Below, piece after piece: positions 47,543 to 64,000 of a stretch of DNA of 64,000 bases; position 1 is the first letter of the stretch, and each line of letters starts with the position of its first letter. A program made the position numbers and the translations under genes. Origin of the DNA: Myxococcota bacterium (lineage in GTDB: Bacteria > Myxococcota_A > UBA9160 > UBA6930); assembly GCA_028277885.1 (NCBI GenBank), contig JANQFK010000062.1, positions 16,685-80,684 on the forward strand. The letters are read 5' to 3'. Under the pieces are notes generated by a model. It worked only from the letters and a program-made list of their open reading frames with translations, was not told the origin of the DNA and ran no database searches.

Positions 47543-48031
47543 TCATCCCTCGACGGAGACCCGCTGCAGCCGGGTCTTGCGGGGCTTTCGCCGCTCCACC
47601 GGTCGCTCGCCGGGGGTCGCGGTCGGGGCCGGTTGACGCGGTGCGCGCACGCCGAGCTCCCAGAGGATCTCGCGCAGGCCGAGGAAGGCGCGCAGCACGG
47701 CGCGGGCCTCCGGGTCCTCCTGGGCGCGCCGCTCCCAGCGCGCGATCTCGCCCTCGAGGGCGTCGAGCACGCCGGCCACCAGCTCCGCCCCCGAGGCGCC
47801 GGCGTCCTCGGCGAGCAGCCGCGCCACGGCCTCGAGGCCGCCGGCCAGGGGCGGCAGCGTCTCGGAGCCCGGCGTGCCCGTGGCGGCCAGGCTCGCGGCG
47901 TCGAGCAGCGCGCCGAGGGCGGCCGTGGCCTCGGCGCCCGCGGCGCGGGCGTGGCGGCGGGCCCGGGCCAGGGCCTCGGCGGGCGTCTCCGCCGCGCCTC
48001 CCGCGCGATCCCGGCGGTCACTCGGATCCAT
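47543..48031 (-). CDS. Hypothetical helical protein
   Basis: GC3-biased frame coupled to the upstream ArsA stop; ends RLQRVSVEG. Confidence 0.6.
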   Translation of the reverse strand: MDPSDRRDRAGGAAETPAEALARARRHARAAGAEATAALGALLDAASLAATGTPGSETLPPLAGGLEAVARLLAEDAGASGAELVAGVLDALEGEIARWERRAQEDPEARAVLRAFLGLREILWELGVRAPRQPAPTATPGERPVERRKPRKTRLQRVSVEG

Positions 48032-49227
48032 CAGGGGGTCTCCCGCTCGGCCTCGCCGAGCACCAGGGAAGCGACGTGGGCGAGCCCGTCCAGATCGTGC
48101 ACGTCGCGATCGAGCAGCGGAACGCAGCGCCAGAAGTAGCCCGAAGCCCGCGCGCGTTCACGCAGCGGAGCCACGTTCTCGGCGTCGCGCTCGACGAGGG
48201 CCGCGTAGCCGCGCAGCGCCGCGCGCGTGGCCTCGGCGGCGGCGCGCGCATCGAAGCCCGCGCCCTCGCTGAGCGCGAAGGCCTCGGCGAGCTTCTCGAG
48301 CGCCGCCGCGTCGGCTCCGTCGCCGGGCTCCAGCCCGGCGTCGGGCCACAGGTGCATGCGGTTCACCACGATGCCCGCCACCCCGGCGCGGCCCGACTCG
48401 AGCCGCTCGAGGAAGCTCTCGGCGTGGCGCACCGACTCGCGCGCGGGCCCGGCGGCCAGCAGGAAGGCGGTCTCGGGCCCGAAGAGCAGCGCCTGCACCC
48501 TGTGGGCGCGGTCGCGGAAGCCCTCGGACATGCCCTCGAAGGCGAGCAGGAACTCCGAGATGTCCTGGAGGAAGCCCACGCCCGACACCTTCTCGAGGGT
48601 GCGCAGGACGCGCTGGGCGCCACGCTGGAACAGCCGGAACCCCATGCGGCCGGCCGCGAAGGCGGGGTGCAGCAGCAGCTGCACGACGCGGCTGTCGAGG
48701 AAGCCGAGCAGCCGCTCCGGGGCCTCGAGGAAGTCGAGGGCGTGCTGCGAGGGCGGCGTGTCGAGCACGATCAGGTCGAAGTCCTTCTGCTCGGCCAGCT
48801 CGTAGACCTTCTCCATGGCGGAGTACTCGGCGCTCCCCGCCAGCGCGTCGGAGACGTGCTGGTAGATCGGGTTGCCCAGGATGCGGTCCCGGGCCTCGGG
48901 GCTCTCGGCGAAGCGCTCGACCAGGTCGTCGAAGGTGCGCTTCATGTCGAGCATCATGGCCGAGAGCTCGCCTTCGGGCGGCACGCCGAGGCGGTCGAGC
49001 ACGTCGCGGGGCAGGGTCTGGGGCTCGTTGCCGAGCTCGCGGATCCCGAGGGCGTCGGCGAGCCGCTTGGCGGGGTCGATGGTGAGCACGAGCACGCGGC
49101 GGCCGCGCCGCGCCGCCGACAGGCCCAGTGCGGCGGAGATCGTGGTCTTGCCGACGCCGCCGGTGCCCACGCACACCAGCACGCGGCGCGAGTCGAGGAG
49201 CACGTGGGGCGCGGGAGCCGGCGTCAC
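48031..49227 (-). CDS. ArsA/GET3-family ATPase (Rv3680-like subunit)
   Basis: CVGTGGVGKTT, TIDPAKRLADALG, EYSAMEK, DTPPSQHALDFL. Confidence 0.88.
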   Translation of the reverse strand: MTPAPAPHVLLDSRRVLVCVGTGGVGKTTISAALGLSAARRGRRVLVLTIDPAKRLADALGIRELGNEPQTLPRDVLDRLGVPPEGELSAMMLDMKRTFDDLVERFAESPEARDRILGNPIYQHVSDALAGSAEYSAMEKVYELAEQKDFDLIVLDTPPSQHALDFLEAPERLLGFLDSRVVQLLLHPAFAAGRMGFRLFQRGAQRVLRTLEKVSGVGFLQDISEFLLAFEGMSEGFRDRAHRVQALLFGPETAFLLAAGPARESVRHAESFLERLESGRAGVAGIVVNRMHLWPDAGLEPGDGADAAALEKLAEAFALSEGAGFDARAAAEATRAALRGYAALVERDAENVAPLRERARASGYFWRCVPLLDRDVHDLDGLAHVASLVLGEAERETP

Positions 49228-50210
49228 GCCGCCTCCGCCGCGGCGGGCTCGAGGAGCGCCGTGCCGAGCCGGTCGAGGTCCTCGGGTCCGCGGACGCCCT
49301 GGGGGAGCAGGGGGAGCGTGCAGATCGGCAGCCCGGTCCAGGCCTCGATCGCGCCGACGTAGTGGGCGTTGAGCCGATGGCGGGAGCGCAGGTGGGCGGC
49401 GCAGCGGGCGAGGGTGCGGGGCCCCGGCAGCCCCGGGACGTGCAGCTCCGCCGGCAGGCGGGCCAGTCGCTCGTCGAGATCCTCGAGCCCGGGCGGGAAG
49501 GGCGGAGGCGTCACGGCGTTCACCACCACCCGGTCCACCGCGACCCCCACCTCCTCGCGCAGGCGCTGCACCAGCTCGGCGGTCTCCCGCGCCGGCAGCT
49601 CCTCGGCGAGGGCCACGGGCAGCAGCAGGGTCGAGTCGGGATCGGTGATCATCTGCTGGACCAGGGAGGCGTTGCGCCGCAGCGGGCCCGCCCGCACCGC
49701 CGACGAGACCACCCGCGGCACGTCGAGGAAGGTGAGGCCGTGGCCCGTGGCGGGCGCGTCCACGAGGAGCAGGTCGAACTCCGGCGCTCCGCCGGGCCGG
49801 CGGCCCTGGGCCATGTGCCACACCTTTCCCAGGGTGATGAGCTCGCGCCAGCCCGGCGCCGCCTCCATGAGCTGGCGGAAGCCCGGGTTCCGCAGCACCC
49901 GGCTCACCAGGCCGCGGACCGGGAGCTGGAGGCTCAGGTACTCGGCGAGGGCCTCGAAGGGATCGATGCGCATGGCGGTCAGCCCGGGCTGGAGCTCCCG
50001 GCCCGCGTAGCCCACGGGAGGCGTCGCCGGGTCCAGGAGGCGCGGGACGTGCTCCTCGCGGCCCGTCTCGGCCACCAGCACCCGCCTGCCCGCCTGGGCG
50101 GCCGCGCGCGCCAGGGCCGCCACCACGCTCGTCTTCCCGGTGCCGCCCTTGCCCGTCACGATCACCAGGCGGCGCTCGAGGAGGCCGCGGCGGGGCAGGG
50201 GCAGGGGCAA
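49224..50210 (-). CDS. ArsA/GET3-family ATPase (Rv3679-like subunit)
   Basis: TTG start after GGAG; VTGKGGTGKT, APGWRELITLGK, DAPATGH, EELPARET. Confidence 0.85.
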   Translation of the reverse strand: MPLPLPRRGLLERRLVIVTGKGGTGKTSVVAALARAAAQAGRRVLVAETGREEHVPRLLDPATPPVGYAGRELQPGLTAMRIDPFEALAEYLSLQLPVRGLVSRVLRNPGFRQLMEAAPGWRELITLGKVWHMAQGRRPGGAPEFDLLLVDAPATGHGLTFLDVPRVVSSAVRAGPLRRNASLVQQMITDPDSTLLLPVALAEELPARETAELVQRLREEVGVAVDRVVVNAVTPPPFPPGLEDLDERLARLPAELHVPGLPGPRTLARCAAHLRSRHRLNAHYVGAIEAWTGLPICTLPLLPQGVRGPEDLDRLGTALLEPAAAEAA

Positions 50211-50345
50211 GCGGGTCTCCGTCCCCGCGGGCGCCGCCCCTCTCAAGCGGGGTCGCCACGCGTCCGAAACGACCGTAGACGGCCGGGTTCCCTCGGAAAC
50301 TAGCGTAGGAACGAGGTCCCAGGGCAAGCCACGGAGAGCTCTCGG

Positions 50346-56266: not shown

Positions 56267-56842
56267 CTAACGCGCGAGCAGGGCCTTCCGCGCCCGGTAC
56301 AGGTGGGACTTCACCGAGTCCTCGCTCTTGTCGAGAGCCTCGGCGATCTCCTGGATCGAGCGGTCCTGGAGGTGGTGCAGCTGGAAGAGCAGGCGCTGCT
56401 CCGGCGTCAGGTCCTGCCGGATGGCCGTCTCCATGCGCTGCATGGTCTCGTTGCACTCGTAGGCCTCGTGCGGATTCGGGTCGCGGCTCACGGCGCCGGG
56501 AAGGTTGGCGTTGTCCGGCTCGGTCTCGGGCAACGGAACCATGTCGTGTCGCTTCTTCTTGTAGCGGCCGGCGATGGTCCGGCGGGTCAACCCGAACAGC
56601 CAGGCGGCGAAGGGCGCCTCGCCCCGGAAGCCGTGGATCGACGAGAAGACGTTGACGAAGACCTCTTGCACGGTCTCCTCGGCGTCCGCCCGGCTCGCCA
56701 TCCGCTTGGAGACGAAGCTGTAGACCCGAGGGAAGTAGCGCTCGTACAAGATCTCGAAGGAGGCGCGGTCTCCCGTGCGCAAGCGGTCGATCAGCTCGGC
56801 GTCGGAGAGCGGCTCCGGAAGCGCAGCATTCGCAGCAGCCAT
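56267..56842 (-). CDS. ECF-type RNA polymerase sigma factor
   Basis: GDRASFEILYERY, DAEETVQEVF, FAAWLFG, IQEIAEAL..SVKSHLYRAR. Confidence 0.9.
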   Translation of the reverse strand: MAAANAALPEPLSDAELIDRLRTGDRASFEILYERYFPRVYSFVSKRMASRADAEETVQEVFVNVFSSIHGFRGEAPFAAWLFGLTRRTIAGRYKKKRHDMVPLPETEPDNANLPGAVSRDPNPHEAYECNETMQRMETAIRQDLTPEQRLLFQLHHLQDRSIQEIAEALDKSEDSVKSHLYRARKALLAR

Positions 56843-56998
56843 GGTTCCCTTCCCTGGCGCACCGGCACGCCGGCGCACGTCCCATCCCCCATTGTGGTAG
56901 TGACGAGGTCGGGCGACGGGGTGTCAAAAAATGTCACCGATCGACGAAAAAAGTTGCCGGCTGCCGAAAAGAGGCACCCCGCGGGGCCTCCCGCCCGC

Positions 56999-57559
56999 TC
57001 AGAACGCTCCTGAGGGCGCCTCGGAGCCCGCCTCGCCGAGGTCGTCCTCCTCGAGCCCCGTCCGGAAGACCGACTCCAGGGCCGGGGCCCAGGCGTCGGG
57101 GCCGGGCTCGGCGGGCCCCACGGGCTCGAGCTCCACGGCCCAGCCCGTCGCGGTGCGGCGGGCGCGGTAGACGGCCGGCTCGATCGGCGCTCCCCCCAGG
57201 CCCTGGGCGGCGGCCAGCACCCGCGGATCGAGCCGCGGGGCCAGCAGCAGGGCGCGCACCCCGCGGCCGGGATCCAGGCCGAGCCCGGGAGCGAGCTGCC
57301 GCCAGTCGGCGAGGCGGGGCTCGAGCCAGGCGCGCTGGGCGAGGGCGTCGGTGAAGCGGGCGAGGTCGTCGCCCTCGGCGGCCACGCAAACCACGACGAC
57401 GCCGCCCCGCTCGTCCCGGGCGACGAGGTCGATGCGGGCGTCGAGGCCCAGCACCCGCTCGGCCACCACGCTGAGCGGCGGGTCGAGCTCCACGAGCGCC
57501 TCGCCGATGGCGCGCAGCAGGGCGGAGCGGGGCGGTCGGGGTGCGCGGCTCTCAGCCAC
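56999..57559 (-). CDS. Hypothetical protein with a degenerate NucS/PD-(D/E)XK-like fold
   Basis: RIDLVARDERGGVVVVCV and VRALLLAP resemble the NucS C-terminus, but the E-x-K catalytic motif is absent. Confidence 0.5.
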   Translation of the reverse strand: MAESRAPRPPRSALLRAIGEALVELDPPLSVVAERVLGLDARIDLVARDERGGVVVVCVAAEGDDLARFTDALAQRAWLEPRLADWRQLAPGLGLDPGRGVRALLLAPRLDPRVLAAAQGLGGAPIEPAVYRARRTATGWAVELEPVGPAEPGPDAWAPALESVFRTGLEEDDLGEAGSEAPSGAF

Positions 57560-58325
57560 GGGCGTCCTCCGCGGCGTCCTCCAGCAGGAGCCTCGCCACG
57601 TCGCGCACCGCCCGGGCGCCGCGGGACTGGGGATGGGCCAGCCCGATGGGACGCAGGTTCACGATGGCGCGGTAGACGTCGAGGTCGTCGAGGAGCAGGC
57701 CGTAGCTGAGCAGGCCGCGCCCGAGGTTCTGCTCCGCGGCGGCGGCGAGGCGCCCGAAGGCCTGGCGCGCGTCGTCGATGCTGGCGACGCCGTGGATCGT
57801 GACCCCGACGCGGGCCTCGGGGGCGCCGCGCACCAGGCTCTCCACCAGGCGGTAGGTCGCCTGGAGCTCGCGGGGGTCGGGCGTGGTGAAGAGCAGGGAC
57901 CAGCGCGGCAGCTCCCGGGCGGGCGGGGCGAGCCAGTCGACGGGAACGCAGAGCAGCGCCAGCCCCGGCTTCCCGCGTCCCCAGCCCCGCGACTCGCCGA
58001 GCTCCCGGGCGGTGGCGGCGAGCTCCTCGAGGCCGCGCGCCCCGCACAGCACGAGCTCGGTCCCGAGCGGCCCCACCCCCGGCGCGGGCCACAGGGATTC
58101 GGCGTCCACCCCGCGCGGCGCGATCACCGTGGCCGACGCCCCGGTGCGCGCCACCTCCACGGCCAGGTTCCAGACGAAGGCCGCGCGCACCACGTCGCGC
58201 GGGTCGAGGGGGACGGCGAGCCAGGGCGGATCGGCGCGGGGCGTGAGGGGCTCCCGGGGCGCGGGCTCTTCGCCGTCGGCGCCGTCGAGGAAGTAGTGCA
58301 GGACGTCGCCGAGCTCGCGCGCCAA
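57552..58325 (-). CDS. Degenerate MinD/FlhG-like protein with no Walker A
   Basis: RAAFVWNLAVEVAR, FTTPDPRELQATYRLV, DLDVYRAIVNLRPIGLAHPQSRGARAVRDVARLL. Confidence 0.6.
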   Translation of the reverse strand: MARELGDVLHYFLDGADGEEPAPREPLTPRADPPWLAVPLDPRDVVRAAFVWNLAVEVARTGASATVIAPRGVDAESLWPAPGVGPLGTELVLCGARGLEELAATARELGESRGWGRGKPGLALLCVPVDWLAPPARELPRWSLLFTTPDPRELQATYRLVESLVRGAPEARVGVTIHGVASIDDARQAFGRLAAAAEQNLGRGLLSYGLLLDDLDVYRAIVNLRPIGLAHPQSRGARAVRDVARLLLEDAAEDARG

Positions 58326-58380: not shown

Positions 58381-59484
58381 TCAGCTCACCACGAGGACCG
58401 AGTTCTTTCCGCCCACGGGTCCCGCCACGGAGCGCGGGTTGTCCGGGTCCGAGCGCCACTCCCCGTCCACCACGTAGCGGTACTGGTAGGTGCCCGGGGC
58501 GAGGTGCAGCACCTTGCGCCACACGCGGGCCGGCCCGTCGGAGTCGACCCGGGACTGCACCCCCTTGTCGGGCACCCAGCCGTTGAAGTCCCCGGCGATG
58601 CGCACGTCCGCGGCCCGCGGGTCGCGGAACTCGACCACCACCTCCCGGGTGTGGATCGGACCGGCTTCGGGAGCCATCGCGGCGGGCCGCAGCGGTGCGT
58701 CGATCGCGTCGGCGTCGGCGCCGAGGGCGGTCACCTCGACGGCGAGGGCGGCGTAGTCCACGGCTCCGTTGGCGGAGCGGGCGAAGCGGATGATGGGGAG
58801 ACCGCGGCGCGCGGCCTCGCGCAGCTTCACGTTGGCGCGGATCACGGTGTCGAAGCACAGGTCGCCGAAGAGCTTGCGGATCTCCGCCAGGGTCTCCCGG
58901 GCGTAGCGGGTGCGCCCGTCGTACAGGGTCGGCAGGATCCGCACGGTGAGCTCGTGCCCGATGCGGTTGGCGAGCAGCGCGATGGTCTCGAGCAGCTTCT
59001 GCACGCCGTCGATGGCGAAGAAGCTCGTCTCGAGGGGGACGATCACCTCGCGGGCCGCGCGCAGGGCGTTGAAGGTCAGGATCCCGACGTTCGGCGGGCA
59101 GTCGATCAGCGCGTAGTCGTAGCGGTCGGCCACGGTCTCGAGGGCGCCGGCGAGGCGCTCGGTGCGGGTGTCGGCCCGCTCGCCGGCGAGCCTCTGCTCG
59201 AGGGCGGAGAGCACGATGCCCGACGGCGCCACGTGGAGGCCCTCGCGCACCTCCTGGATCACCGGGCCCAGGCGCGCGTCGCCGCCGGGCTCCGCGAGCA
59301 CCTCGTAGAGGTTCTCGTCGAGGGCCTCGGGCTCGAGGCCCAGGGCCAGCGTGGCGTGGGCCTGGGGATCGATGTCCACCACCAGCACCCGGGCTCCTTC
59401 GGCCTCGAGGCAGCCCGCGAGGTTCACGGTGGTGGTGGTCTTCCCGCAGCCACCCTTCTGGTTGACGATCGCGATGGTTCGCAT
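58381..59484 (-). CDS. ParA/Soj-family ATPase fused to a C-terminal AMPK-beta/CBM48-type glycogen-binding domain
   Basis: NQKGGCGKTTT, DIDPQAHAT, IDCPP, YDGRT, IRANVKLREA; C-terminal V.IAGDFNGW..W...L.LAPGTYQYRYVVDGEW.SDPDNP..GGKNS. Confidence 0.9.
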   Translation of the reverse strand: MRTIAIVNQKGGCGKTTTTVNLAGCLEAEGARVLVVDIDPQAHATLALGLEPEALDENLYEVLAEPGGDARLGPVIQEVREGLHVAPSGIVLSALEQRLAGERADTRTERLAGALETVADRYDYALIDCPPNVGILTFNALRAAREVIVPLETSFFAIDGVQKLLETIALLANRIGHELTVRILPTLYDGRTRYARETLAEIRKLFGDLCFDTVIRANVKLREAARRGLPIIRFARSANGAVDYAALAVEVTALGADADAIDAPLRPAAMAPEAGPIHTREVVVEFRDPRAADVRIAGDFNGWVPDKGVQSRVDSDGPARVWRKVLHLAPGTYQYRYVVDGEWRSDPDNPRSVAGPVGGKNSVLVVS

Positions 59485-59616: not shown

Positions 59617-60096
59617 CTAGCCGGCCCGGGCGCGGGCCGGCGAGGAGGGCGCGGCGCGCGGTGCGTTGCGGTCCGCGCCCTCGCTCCGACGGAAGGCCGC
59701 GACCTCCCGCTCGAAGCGCGCCACCTCGAAGACCCACTCCTGACCGGTCACGGCCTCGAAGGCGCCTTCCCCGTGCATCACCAGCACCACGTCGCCGGTC
59801 GCGACCAGCACGAGCTCGGCGAGCGGGTGATCCACCTGGGGAAGCGTCCGCCGGAGCGCCTGGATGCTCCGCCGGATCCGCTGCACCGAGACGCCGGCCT
59901 CGAGCAGCCGCTTGGCGGCCTTCAGGGCCACCAGATCGCGAAAGGTGTAGCGGTGGTGGCCACCCGGGGTCTGGCAGGAAGGCCGCACCAGGTCGGTGCG
60001 CGCCCAGTACTGGAGCTGGCGCCGCGAGATGCCCAGCATCTGGGCGACCTCGCCGCTGCGGTAGCGATCCCCGTCGTGGCCCGTGGCCGTGGTCAA
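59617..60096 (-). CDS. MerR-family HTH protein
   Basis: YRSGEVAQMLGISRRQLQYW..LVRPS..GGHHRYTFRDLV, GVSVQRIRR; TTG start. Confidence 0.85.
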   Translation of the reverse strand: MTTATGHDGDRYRSGEVAQMLGISRRQLQYWARTDLVRPSCQTPGGHHRYTFRDLVALKAAKRLLEAGVSVQRIRRSIQALRRTLPQVDHPLAELVLVATGDVVLVMHGEGAFEAVTGQEWVFEVARFEREVAAFRRSEGADRNAPRAAPSSPARARAG

Positions 60097-60269: not shown

Positions 60270-61475
60270 GTGACCAGGGGGGAGCCGCGTCCCAAGCAGC
60301 CCTCGCGGCCCGAGGGGGCCGATGGGCGGCTGTGGGTCGAGGACGAGGCCGGCCGCCGCCCCTTCATGCGCGGCATCCTGATCCACTCCCTGATGGCCCG
60401 GGGCTTCGACTTCCAGGAGGCCTACCAGGTCGCGGTGGCGGTGCGGAAGCGCCTGCGGGGAGAGGCGGTGGTGGGCCGCAAGGAGATCGTCGCCGCCATC
60501 GAGGCCGTCGCCGACCCCGACGCGCTGCGCGAGGCCCGGGTCGAGGCGCGCCAGCCGCCCCAGATCCAGGTCAAGGGCTCGTCCGGCGAGCTGCCCTTCT
60601 CGAAGGGCTTCCTCAGCCAGTCGCTGCTGGCCGCCGCCATCGAGCCGAGCGACGCCTTCGACGTGGCGCGCGAGATCGAGGGGGAGCTGCTGCGCCGCGA
60701 GCAGCGCGCCATCGATCGCCACGAGCTGCGCGGCGTCGCCTACCAGACCCTGCACCAGCGCCTGGGTCCCAAGGTGGCCGAGCGCTACCTGGCCTGGCGC
60801 CGCTACCAGGAGCCCGAGCGCCCCGTGATCCTGCTGCTCGGCGGCGCCACGGGGGTGGGCAAGACCGCCCTCGCCCTCGAGGTGGGGCACCGCCTCGGCG
60901 TGGCCCGGGTGATCTCCACCGACGCGATCCGCCAGGTGATGCGCATCATGCTCTCGCCGGACCTGGTGCCCGCCATCCACGCCTCGTCCTTCGACGCCCA
61001 CCGCGCCGTGGGCGACCCGGCCAGCGCGCCCGGCGCGGACCCCGTGATCGGTGGCTTCAGCTCCCAGGCCGACATCGTCTCCGTCGGCGTCCGCGCCATG
61101 ATCGACCGCGCCGTGGCGGAGAACCAGAACCTGATCCTGGACGGCGTCTCGGTGGTGCCCGGCTCCATCGACCTCGAGGCCTACCGCGACAAGGCGGACC
61201 TGATCTTCCTGCTGGTCGCGGTCCTCGACCTCTCGAAGATCGCCGACCGCTTCGCGACCCGGGGGCGCGCCGCCAAGGAGCGCCCGCCCCACCGCTACCT
61301 CGAGAACCTCGAGTCCATCGGCCGCATCCAGAACCACCTGCTCGAGCTCGCCGAGCAGCACGACGTGCCCATCGTGGAGAACGACGACTTCGACCTCTCG
61401 GTGCTCTCGATCATCCGGCACGTGACCGAGACCCTGCGCAAGAAGGACCCGATGGATGTGGCCGACCTGTTCTAG
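60270..61475 (+). CDS. 2-phosphoglycerate kinase-like protein (two ATP-cone-like domains + P-loop kinase)
   Basis: PFMRGILIHSL and PFSKGFLSQSL repeats; LLGGATGVGKT, ISTDAIRQVMR, IHASSF, DGVSVVPG, RIQNHL. Confidence 0.8.
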   Translation: MTRGEPRPKQPSRPEGADGRLWVEDEAGRRPFMRGILIHSLMARGFDFQEAYQVAVAVRKRLRGEAVVGRKEIVAAIEAVADPDALREARVEARQPPQIQVKGSSGELPFSKGFLSQSLLAAAIEPSDAFDVAREIEGELLRREQRAIDRHELRGVAYQTLHQRLGPKVAERYLAWRRYQEPERPVILLLGGATGVGKTALALEVGHRLGVARVISTDAIRQVMRIMLSPDLVPAIHASSFDAHRAVGDPASAPGADPVIGGFSSQADIVSVGVRAMIDRAVAENQNLILDGVSVVPGSIDLEAYRDKADLIFLLVAVLDLSKIADRFATRGRAAKERPPHRYLENLESIGRIQNHLLELAEQHDVPIVENDDFDLSVLSIIRHVTETLRKKDPMDVADLF

Positions 61476-62288: not shown

Positions 62289-63701
62289 ATGACCCCGAGC
62301 CCCCCTCCCGCCCGCACCCTCGGCGAGCTGCGCGCCTCGGGCTGGCACTCGCGCCCGGTGCGCGAGGAGCTGCGCGCGAACCTGCTCGAGCGCCTGCGCC
62401 GCGGCGAGGCGCTCTTCCCCGGCATCCTGGGCTACGACGACAGCGTGGTCCCGGCGGTCGAGAACGCGCTGCTGTGCGGCCACGACCTGATCTTCCTGGG
62501 GGAGCGCGGCCAGGCGAAGTCCCGCATGATCCGCGCCCTCGCCGAGCTCCTCGACCCCTGGCTGCCCGTCGTGGCGGGCAGCGAGATCCACGACGACCCC
62601 CTGGCCCCGGTGTCCGCCGAGGCCCGGCGCGCCGTGGCGGAGCACGGGGACGCCACCGAGATCGCCTGGATCCCGCGGGAGGAGCGCTACGTCGAGAAGC
62701 TCGCCACCCCCGACGTCTCCATCGGGGACCTGATCGGCGACGTCGACCCGGTGAAGGTGGCCCAGGGACGCTCCCTCGCCGACGAGACCACCATCCACTT
62801 CGGCCTGCTGCCCCGCACCAACCGCGGGATCTTCTGCATCAACGAGCTGCCCGACCTGACGGAGAAGGTGCAGGTGGGCCTGTTCAACGTGATGCAGGAG
62901 CGCGACGTCCAGGTGAAGGGCTACCGGGTGCGGCTGCCCCTCGACGTGTTCGTGGTCGCCAGCGCGAACCCCGAGGACTACACCAGCCGCGGCCGCATCA
63001 TCACGCCCCTGAAGGACCGCTACGCCGCGCAGATCCGCACCCACTATCCGCGCACCCGGGAGCTCGAGCTGGCCGTGGTGCGCCAGGAGGCGCGCCTGCC
63101 CGCCGCGCCCGGCGTCGCGGTGCACGTGCCCGCCTTCATGGAGGACCTGGTGGGGGAGCTCACCCTCCAGGCGCGCAGCAGCCCCGACGTGAACCAGACC
63201 TCGGGCGTGTCGGTGCGCATGTCCATCGCCAACCACGAGACCCTCGTCGCCAACGCGGTGCGCCGGGCCCTGCGCCGGGGCGAGAGCGAGGCGGTGCCCC
63301 GGATCAGCGACCTGGAGGCGCTGGTCACCTCCACCGCCGGCAAGCTCGAGCTCGAGTACGCCGGGAGCGATCGCAGCGACGACGAGATCGTGACCGACCT
63401 GATGAAGCGCGCGACCCGCAGCGTGTTCGACGCGCGGGTGCCGCTCGAAGGCGTGGCCTCGGTGGTGGAGTCGTTCCAGCAGGGCTGGGCGGTGGAGGTC
63501 TCCGCCGACCTGCCCGCCGAGGAGTACCTCGAGGGGCTCGACGAGATCCGCGGCCTGCGCGAGGCCGCCGCCCACCTGGCCGGCGGTGACTCGGCGCCGC
63601 GCCTGGCCTCGGCGATCGAGTTCATCCTGGAGGGGCTGCACCTGTCGAACCGGCTCAACAAGCGCGCCTCGGACGGCGCCGCCCGCTACGGGCCGGCGTG
63701 A
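62289..63701 (+). CDS. AAA+ ATPase, Mg-chelatase-like (Rv0958-type)
   Basis: LGERGQAKSR, INELPDL, ANPEDYTSRGRIITPLKDR, EFILEGLH. Confidence 0.85.
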   Translation: MTPSPPPARTLGELRASGWHSRPVREELRANLLERLRRGEALFPGILGYDDSVVPAVENALLCGHDLIFLGERGQAKSRMIRALAELLDPWLPVVAGSEIHDDPLAPVSAEARRAVAEHGDATEIAWIPREERYVEKLATPDVSIGDLIGDVDPVKVAQGRSLADETTIHFGLLPRTNRGIFCINELPDLTEKVQVGLFNVMQERDVQVKGYRVRLPLDVFVVASANPEDYTSRGRIITPLKDRYAAQIRTHYPRTRELELAVVRQEARLPAAPGVAVHVPAFMEDLVGELTLQARSSPDVNQTSGVSVRMSIANHETLVANAVRRALRRGESEAVPRISDLEALVTSTAGKLELEYAGSDRSDDEIVTDLMKRATRSVFDARVPLEGVASVVESFQQGWAVEVSADLPAEEYLEGLDEIRGLREAAAHLAGGDSAPRLASAIEFILEGLHLSNRLNKRASDGAARYGPA

Positions 63702-63711
63702 GCCGCTCCCC

Positions 63712-64000
63712 GTGAAGGTCTGGCGCTACAGCCGCTGGGACGACACCCAGGAGCGCTTCTCCCTGGACCCGCGCCAGGCCCTCGACGCCCTCTCGGACCT
63801 GCTGATGGAGGGCCTCGACGTCGACGAGGCGCTCCGCTGGATGCGCGAGCACGGCTTCGAGCTGGCCGGGCAGGACATGCGCGTGATGGGGACCCGGGAG
63901 CTCATGGAGGAGCTGCGCCGGGAGGCCGAGGCGCTCTACGAGCGCTACCGGCTCGACGCGGCCACCCGCGAGCTGGCGGAGCGCCTGGAGTCGATCCTCG
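63712..64000 (+). CDS. Probable VWA-domain partner protein (Rv0959-type), 3'-truncated by the window edge
   Basis: VKVWRYSRWDDTQ N-terminus typical of this AAA+/VWA pair; frame open to the end of the window. Confidence 0.6.
   Translation, partial: MKVWRYSRWDDTQERFSLDPRQALDALSDLLMEGLDVDEALRWMREHGFELAGQDMRVMGTRELMEELRREAEALYERYRLDAATRELAERLESIL

Follow-up and report, generated by a model that had tools for sequence, protein, structure and literature searches.

The window, meaning the whole 64-kb stretch of DNA analysed here, carries a set of three genes (A, B and C; Table 1) in which a ParA-type ATPase fused to an AMPK-beta-type carbohydrate-binding module (CBM) is followed by two partner genes. 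We put the chances at about even that A-B-C is a housekeeping ParA switch that binds the nucleoid, is served by an activator complex of its own and takes input through a sugar-binding domain. This reading draws on a peptide in gene B that lies in the register of ParB, on the pocket residues kept in gene A, on the tendency of the peptide to travel with the module and on the core-gene behaviour of gene A in the host class.

Table 1. Features of the A-B-C module and its immediate neighbours (positions in the window)
Feature	Position	Strand	Details
Gene A, ParA-CBM fusion	58381..59484	-	367 aa; ATG start; GGAG-rich site upstream; GC3 0.96
Gene A, ParA/Soj-type ATPase domain (aa 1-252)	58729..59484	-	profile, PDB match, alignment
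Gene A, Ala/Pro linker (aa 253-279)	58648..58728	-	unconserved
Gene A, AMPK-beta-type CBM48 (aa 280-367)	58381..58647	-	profile, AMPK alignment
Gene B	57552..58325	-	257 aa; TTG start; AAGGAG upstream; FlhG/FleN-derived fold, Walker A lost
Gene B, N-terminal peptide M-A-R-E-L-G-D-V-L-H-Y-F-L	58287..58325	-	predicted activator of gene A
Gene C	56999..57559	-	186 aa; 8 nt overlap with gene B; NucS/EndoMS-like PD-(D/E)XK fold
MerR-family HTH gene	59617..60096	-	upstream; in 15/21 class loci (window and L010-L029)
ECF sigma factor	56267..56878	-	downstream; conserved class neighbour (15 loci)

The fusion of ParA with AMPK1_CBM was confirmed. The preliminary description had proposed an intact ParA with a deviant Walker A, followed by an Ala/Pro linker and a C-terminal AMPK-beta/CBM48 signature, and had suggested a profile search and a survey of the architecture. 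Every motif it named was located in the 367-aa ORF (KGGCGKT, DIDPQ, IDCPP, YDGRT, NVKLREA and the CBM signature), and both Pfam profiles matched above cut-off (AAA_31 at residues 1-180, E 5e-50; AMPK1_CBM at residues 283-363, E 7e-11, 42.6 bits versus a cut-off of 26.8). The top PDB match of gene A was ParA (8ray, 4e-43), whilst the last 90 residues searched alone recovered AMPK beta CBMs. The linker is present as described but little conserved, with 17-18 % identity between host-class members, and family lengths range from approximately 350 to 570 aa due to longer linkers. Both domains were found in 120/120 homologues listed, of 6671. Across 81 surveyed loci (80 genome loci kept from 575, plus the window), the CBM lay within the ParA ORF at 72, was absent at seven, and was cut by contig ends at two, indicating that the fusion is not a chance or assembly join. 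The nearest family loci were in Myxococcota, with Planctomycetota, Omnitrophota, Rokubacteria, Eisenbacteria, Desulfobacterales and Auribacter further out.

Residue counts for the ATPase domain refer to 45 aligned family members from loci partly found by their Walker A pattern, such that the conservation of that motif is biased. K10, K15, D37, D39, R191 and E223 of gene A were constant in 45/45 members, as was the Walker A Cys, itself part of the pattern used for selection, and all 45 carried a basic residue (K/R220) aligning with R238 of Myxococcus xanthus. We take R191 to be the equivalent of the DNA-binding R189 of Bacillus subtilis. By these basic residues, gene A is predicted to be a DNA-binding-type ParA. 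Its description as an orphan of this type also held, given that the basic residues are conserved and that the genome has a separate canonical parA-parB pair on G000:C6, beside dnaA; for the same reason, we rejected gene A as the chromosomal ParA. The earlier remark that no parB is adjacent was literally correct, but missed that the next gene bears a ParB-type peptide. Pfam identified no ParB domain in genes B or C, a parS consensus had no match in the window at three mismatches, and promoter and terminator scans were empty. A third ParA-type ATPase, with no adjacent parB, was noted at G000:C68:24715-25620 (minus strand) and presumably resembles PomZ.

Five of the six hydrophobic residues of the ParB pocket are kept in gene A (V133, I135, F138, L170 and I175), along with the equivalents of M. 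xanthus Y81/E82 (Y60 and E61). The acidic patch that accommodates ParB R13 is altered (D110 to V91 and E117 to R98), V116 is replaced by Q97, and His43 replaces the catalytic Asn of Motif 2 (M. xanthus N64) in 45/45 members. According to the available text of the M. xanthus study (PMC12462528), such changes in ParA lower ParB-stimulated hydrolysis, so activation of gene A may work differently or weakly. The residue pattern is consistent with a pocket adapted to a dedicated activator.

Genes B and C had no matches in Pfam or NCBIfam when searched alone. A profile of 18 gene B homologues matched FleN/FlhG at 1e-24, and a class-only profile (13 sequences) matched nine FlhG-like proteins at 1e-10 to 3e-18 versus 0.005-0.055 for three ParA controls; the Walker A motif of gene B decays stepwise across phyla. 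The predicted structure of gene C (pLDDT 85) matched NucS in Foldseek (2vld, E 2.6e-5) and keeps D44 but not the catalytic (D/E)xK motif, and its family comprises 1790 clusters. The first 13 residues of gene B line up with the motif through which M. xanthus ParB binds ParA (L11, R13, L15, L18 and I19, as given in the available text of PMC12462528), and in other phyla the peptide reads LGRGLxDVSHxFL. It accompanies the module in three layouts: on a dead FlhG (host class; L035/38/42; L046/64/74/75), on an FlhG-restriction endonuclease (REase) fusion in Phycisphaerae, and directly on the REase in Rokubacteria.

Whether a partner follows gene A was surveyed at the 75 loci where 700 nt or more of downstream sequence was available. 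A B or C domain was present at 46/75 and the peptide pattern at 41/75, which leaves the earlier claim that the cargo adaptor is built into the fusion unsupported; a lone fusion with a built-in adaptor was rejected by this neighbourhood analysis. The mechanics also argue against it, since a cargo binder fixed to the ATPase could tether but would give no local stimulation by itself. Approached from the partner side, ParA-CBM lay upstream in 57/57 metagenome partner loci with 1.5 kb of upstream sequence (79 loci in all, of close kin), and gene B was found in 40/40 fetched class loci. Neither B nor C was found near gene A at the remaining 29/75 loci, 18 of them planctomycete, indicating that the partner is not obligatory. 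A remote partner was considered for these 18 planctomycete genomes and rejected, as a search with one partner profile found only ordinary FlhG. Amongst 150 REase-domain proteins, a C-terminal L[ST]xxE motif occurred in 61/127 without the peptide and in 0/23 with their own peptide, against a shuffle expectation of 2.6 of 150; the lineages counted are not independent, and one protein (P0134) looks exceptional by eye. A similar motif was present in cis in five of nine aligned fusion proteins. This distribution suggests that the tail docks C on the FlhG fold of B, though the window's own gene C does not carry the motif.

Inheritance in the host class was assessed in 121 genomes, comprising 120 that were at least 90 % complete and the host genome (89.6 %). 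Gene A was matched in 117 at 1e-50, one of which proved to be canonical ParA only, leaving 116 carriers, three of them matched over the ParA part only. A tree of 41 gene A sequences required 6 family changes, the fewest possible, versus 25.5 when shuffled. Gene A is vertically inherited, near-universal, single-copy and syntenic in the class, and the host genome holds one copy each of A, B, C and the peptide pattern. The upstream MerR-family gene, not seen beside gene A in other phyla, is likely co-transcribed with gene A, whilst the downstream ECF sigma factor probably reflects synteny and is not part of the system.

The CBM of gene A has an intact-looking, putative glucan site. W303, R336, W343 and N361 align with W100, K126, W133 and N150 of the AMPK beta CBM (residue roles from the available text of PMC9788615), whereas V357 and G359, at the AMPK L146 and T148 positions, vary in the family. 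The first three were invariant in 40/40 class carriers compared (20 glg-negative and 20 glg-positive, chosen), and the stacking Trp pair and the K126 and N150 equivalents were nearly invariant across phyla. CBM identity was 0.67 versus 0.71 for ParA within the class, and 0.39-0.42 versus 0.46-0.48 across phyla. Amongst close pairs picked from low-divergence rows, CBM dN/dS was 0.015-0.14, like that of the ATPase; distant pairs were saturated (up to 0.6) and were left out. The CBM is under purifying selection.

The preliminary description had cast glycogen as the cargo, with the CBM binding granules and the ParA domain holding or spreading them on the nucleoid. Such a role might be ancestral and persist in glycogen-producing lineages. 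We regard the glycogen reading as unlikely. The retained AMPK glucan-binding residues speak for it, as do glgB, glgX, malQ and two phosphorylases in the host genome and a GH57 gene just upstream of gene A at five loci (three Omnitrophota); moreover, Escherichia coli nucleoids are displaced by glycogen condensates, according to the available text of PMC11042326, so there would be a problem to solve. However, the host genome, at its 89.6 % completeness, yielded no GT5, glgC or glgE, and 62/116 class carriers, near-closed genomes included, had no glgB, GT5 or glucan phosphorylase, absence here meaning that none was found with the profiles used in genome sets that are samples. Across all 121 class genomes, glgB was found in 49, GT5 in 38 (28 strong) and phosphorylase in 39. 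Five carriers assembled in 1-3 contigs lacked glgC over cut-off, phosphorylase and GH77, and two of these lacked any GH13/GH57; GH15 was present in four of five near-closed carrier genomes. Nor does the CBM decay where glycogen genes are missing (identity 0.67 in the 20 glg-negative versus 0.63 in the 20 glg-positive carriers). Conversely, glgB and phosphorylase were present in two of the five class non-carriers, and the genomes of the seven family members without a CBM all carried phosphorylase, six of them with GT5.

The co-occurrence check suggested with the original proposal thus divides: it fails in the class, but outside it GT5 was found in 24/50 genomes, phosphorylase in 38/50 and either in 47/50, counts that stand without a background set and come from genomes reached via 59 non-class loci, seven of the 50 having a CBM-less family member. 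On the strength of these 47 genomes the ancestral role may have been in glycogen. A glycogen-granule machine is nonetheless unlikely in the class, where gene A is more likely a housekeeping positioning switch with sugar input. Two substitutes were also rejected. GH57 branching as a hidden glycogen route had a full-length match in only one of the 62 marker-negative carriers (61 had none full-length, and 47 no GH57 match at all). Trehalose as a universal ligand was set aside because otsA was patchy (58/121) and 31 carriers had none of glgB, GT5, phosphorylase, GH57 or otsA. No single ligand emerged that all carriers could share.

Several features of the glucan genes and family variants were noted alongside. 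A GT4 glycosyltransferase (G000:C9:14873-16225; L005:12874-14226, minus strand) sits in a glgB-glgP-malQ-glgX-treT cluster of the host genome, which is without GT5 glgA or glgC. All 22 genomes with this gene carry glgB, and it occurs in 15/22 glgB genomes without a strong GT5 versus 7/27 with one, making it a candidate alternative glucan synthase. The loci with GH57 upstream of ParA-CBM (L041, L055, L060, L068 and L081) have no B or C, and some GH57 variants also have a porin of the alginate-export type together with a membrane protein whose N-terminal helix, KDIYEHLAxIYL, is conserved. In six Desulfobacterota members (L039, L040, L056, L065, L083 and L087), an acidic tail with S-Y-S-x-M-(I/V) replaces the CBM, and two of these keep a downstream peptide-type partner.

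Another possibility is that the CBM fold now binds a protein or glycoprotein, so that the ATPase is linked to a complex of the envelope or of polysaccharide handling, much as BcsQ serves cellulose synthase. No endogenous alpha-glucoside pathway tracks gene A, which would suit such a role. One variant lies with genes for a porin, a GH57 protein and a membrane protein that has an outer domain (the same variant appears in the available text of the Li, Burroughs, Aravind preprint), and short segments of partner proteins, the N-terminus of FliM for example, are bound by FlhG (available text of PMC12826062). Against this stand the exposed stacking Trp pair and the K126/N150 equivalents, whose near-invariance across phyla is as expected of a sugar site, and we consider a protein ligand quite improbable.

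Least probable of all, and very doubtful, is the immune lectin sensor that Li, Burroughs, Aravind (bioRxiv 10.64898/2026.10.19.760177) predicted, in the text available, on the grounds of a sporadic distribution and a rapidly diverging CBM, in which the CBM would detect phage glycans or infection-released carbohydrate and ParA would multimerise to limit infection: it has a published prediction, the restriction-endonuclease fold of gene C and the scatter of the gene A family across phyla in its favour, and accounts for the independence from glycogen, but gene A is near-universal (116/121), single-copy, syntenic and vertical in the host class, the CBM is not fast-diverging by the identities and dN/dS given above, PADLOC returned nothing for either partner gene and, for A, just weak matches to the Walker A, and the module contains no effector, gene C being without its catalytic motif.

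Returning to the switch with its own activator complex, gene A would form dimers on binding ATP and spread over the nucleoid. Gene B, its Walker A lost, may then bind the pocket of the A dimer through its peptide, as ParB binds ParA, and trigger release, whilst C would dock on the FlhG fold of B via its short C-terminal helix, such that B-C could act as an adaptor marking a site or cargo. The CBM would not be this adaptor; it would give the ATPase a further anchor or input by sequestering or anchoring it on sugar. Judged by known enzymes, that sugar is likely not the cell's own glycogen in over half of the class; lineages with glycogen synthesis may use glycogen itself as the ligand. Counted against the switch are the changed acidic patch and N64, the 29/75 partnerless loci and the missing tail motif in the window's gene C.

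The glycogen-cargo and immunity labels both fit the host class badly, which makes the question of the ligand a sharp one and one reducible to a 90-residue domain and a 13-residue peptide. A broader proposal, to which we assign a low probability, is that A-B-C constitutes a third lineage-wide ParA circuit from recycled parts (a ParB peptide, a dead FlhG and a dead NucS), whereby carbohydrate would steer a nucleoid-bound ATPase, placing glycogen granules where present and, in that half of the class without known glycogen enzymes, reading a cytoplasmic glucan yet to be described. If true, a carbohydrate-gated ParA would be a new input type for bacterial spatial organization.

McdAB is a cargo-positioning ParA system with a dedicated partner. 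The module resembles PomXYZ and McdAB in having an orphan, predicted nucleoid-binding ParA with dedicated partners, but those partners are coiled-coil or condensate adaptors, in contrast to the dead FlhG and dead NucS fold here. PomZ is described as a cargo-positioning ParA with partners in the available text of PMC13170346. With M. xanthus ParABS (PDB 8ray; available text of PMC12462528), the module shares the ATPase fold, basic residues, hydrophobic pocket and a peptide in the next gene; it differs in lacking both a ParB CTPase and any parS-like site within the window, and in having His in place of N64, an altered acidic patch and an extra CBM. That CBM resembles AMPK beta CBM48 at the four aligned positions and departs from it in the variable L146/T148 positions and its attachment to an ATPase, glucan binding being putative here. 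The closest likeness, judged by gene content from the text available, is the second variant of ParA-CBM ConB5 in section 29 of the 2026 preprint (bioRxiv 10.64898/2026.10.19.760177), which had already listed the three-gene set computationally: a ParA with C-terminal AMPK1_CBM, an inactive second ParA (gene B here, FlhG-like without Walker A) and an inactive REase (gene C here, a NucS fold without (D/E)xK). Neither the ParB-type peptide, nor the derivation of the second ATPase from FlhG, nor the tail motif is mentioned in that text, and its characterization of the system as sporadic, fast-diverging and immune does not hold in the host class. The earlier statement that no glycogen-positioning system has been characterized is accurate insofar as our literature search found no study of a ParA-glycogen system and no experiment on the gene set, but the architecture itself was already on record.

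Further genes in the window were noted around the module. An ATP-cone and 2-phosphoglycerate-kinase-like gene (60270-61475, plus strand) is divergent from the module and lies beside it in approximately 20 class loci, and a MoxR-like AAA+ and vWA gene pair (62289-64000, plus strand) is conserved upstream in the class. Two tandem ATPase frames, recognized by eye at 48031-50303 (minus strand), are presumably ArsA/Get3-like.
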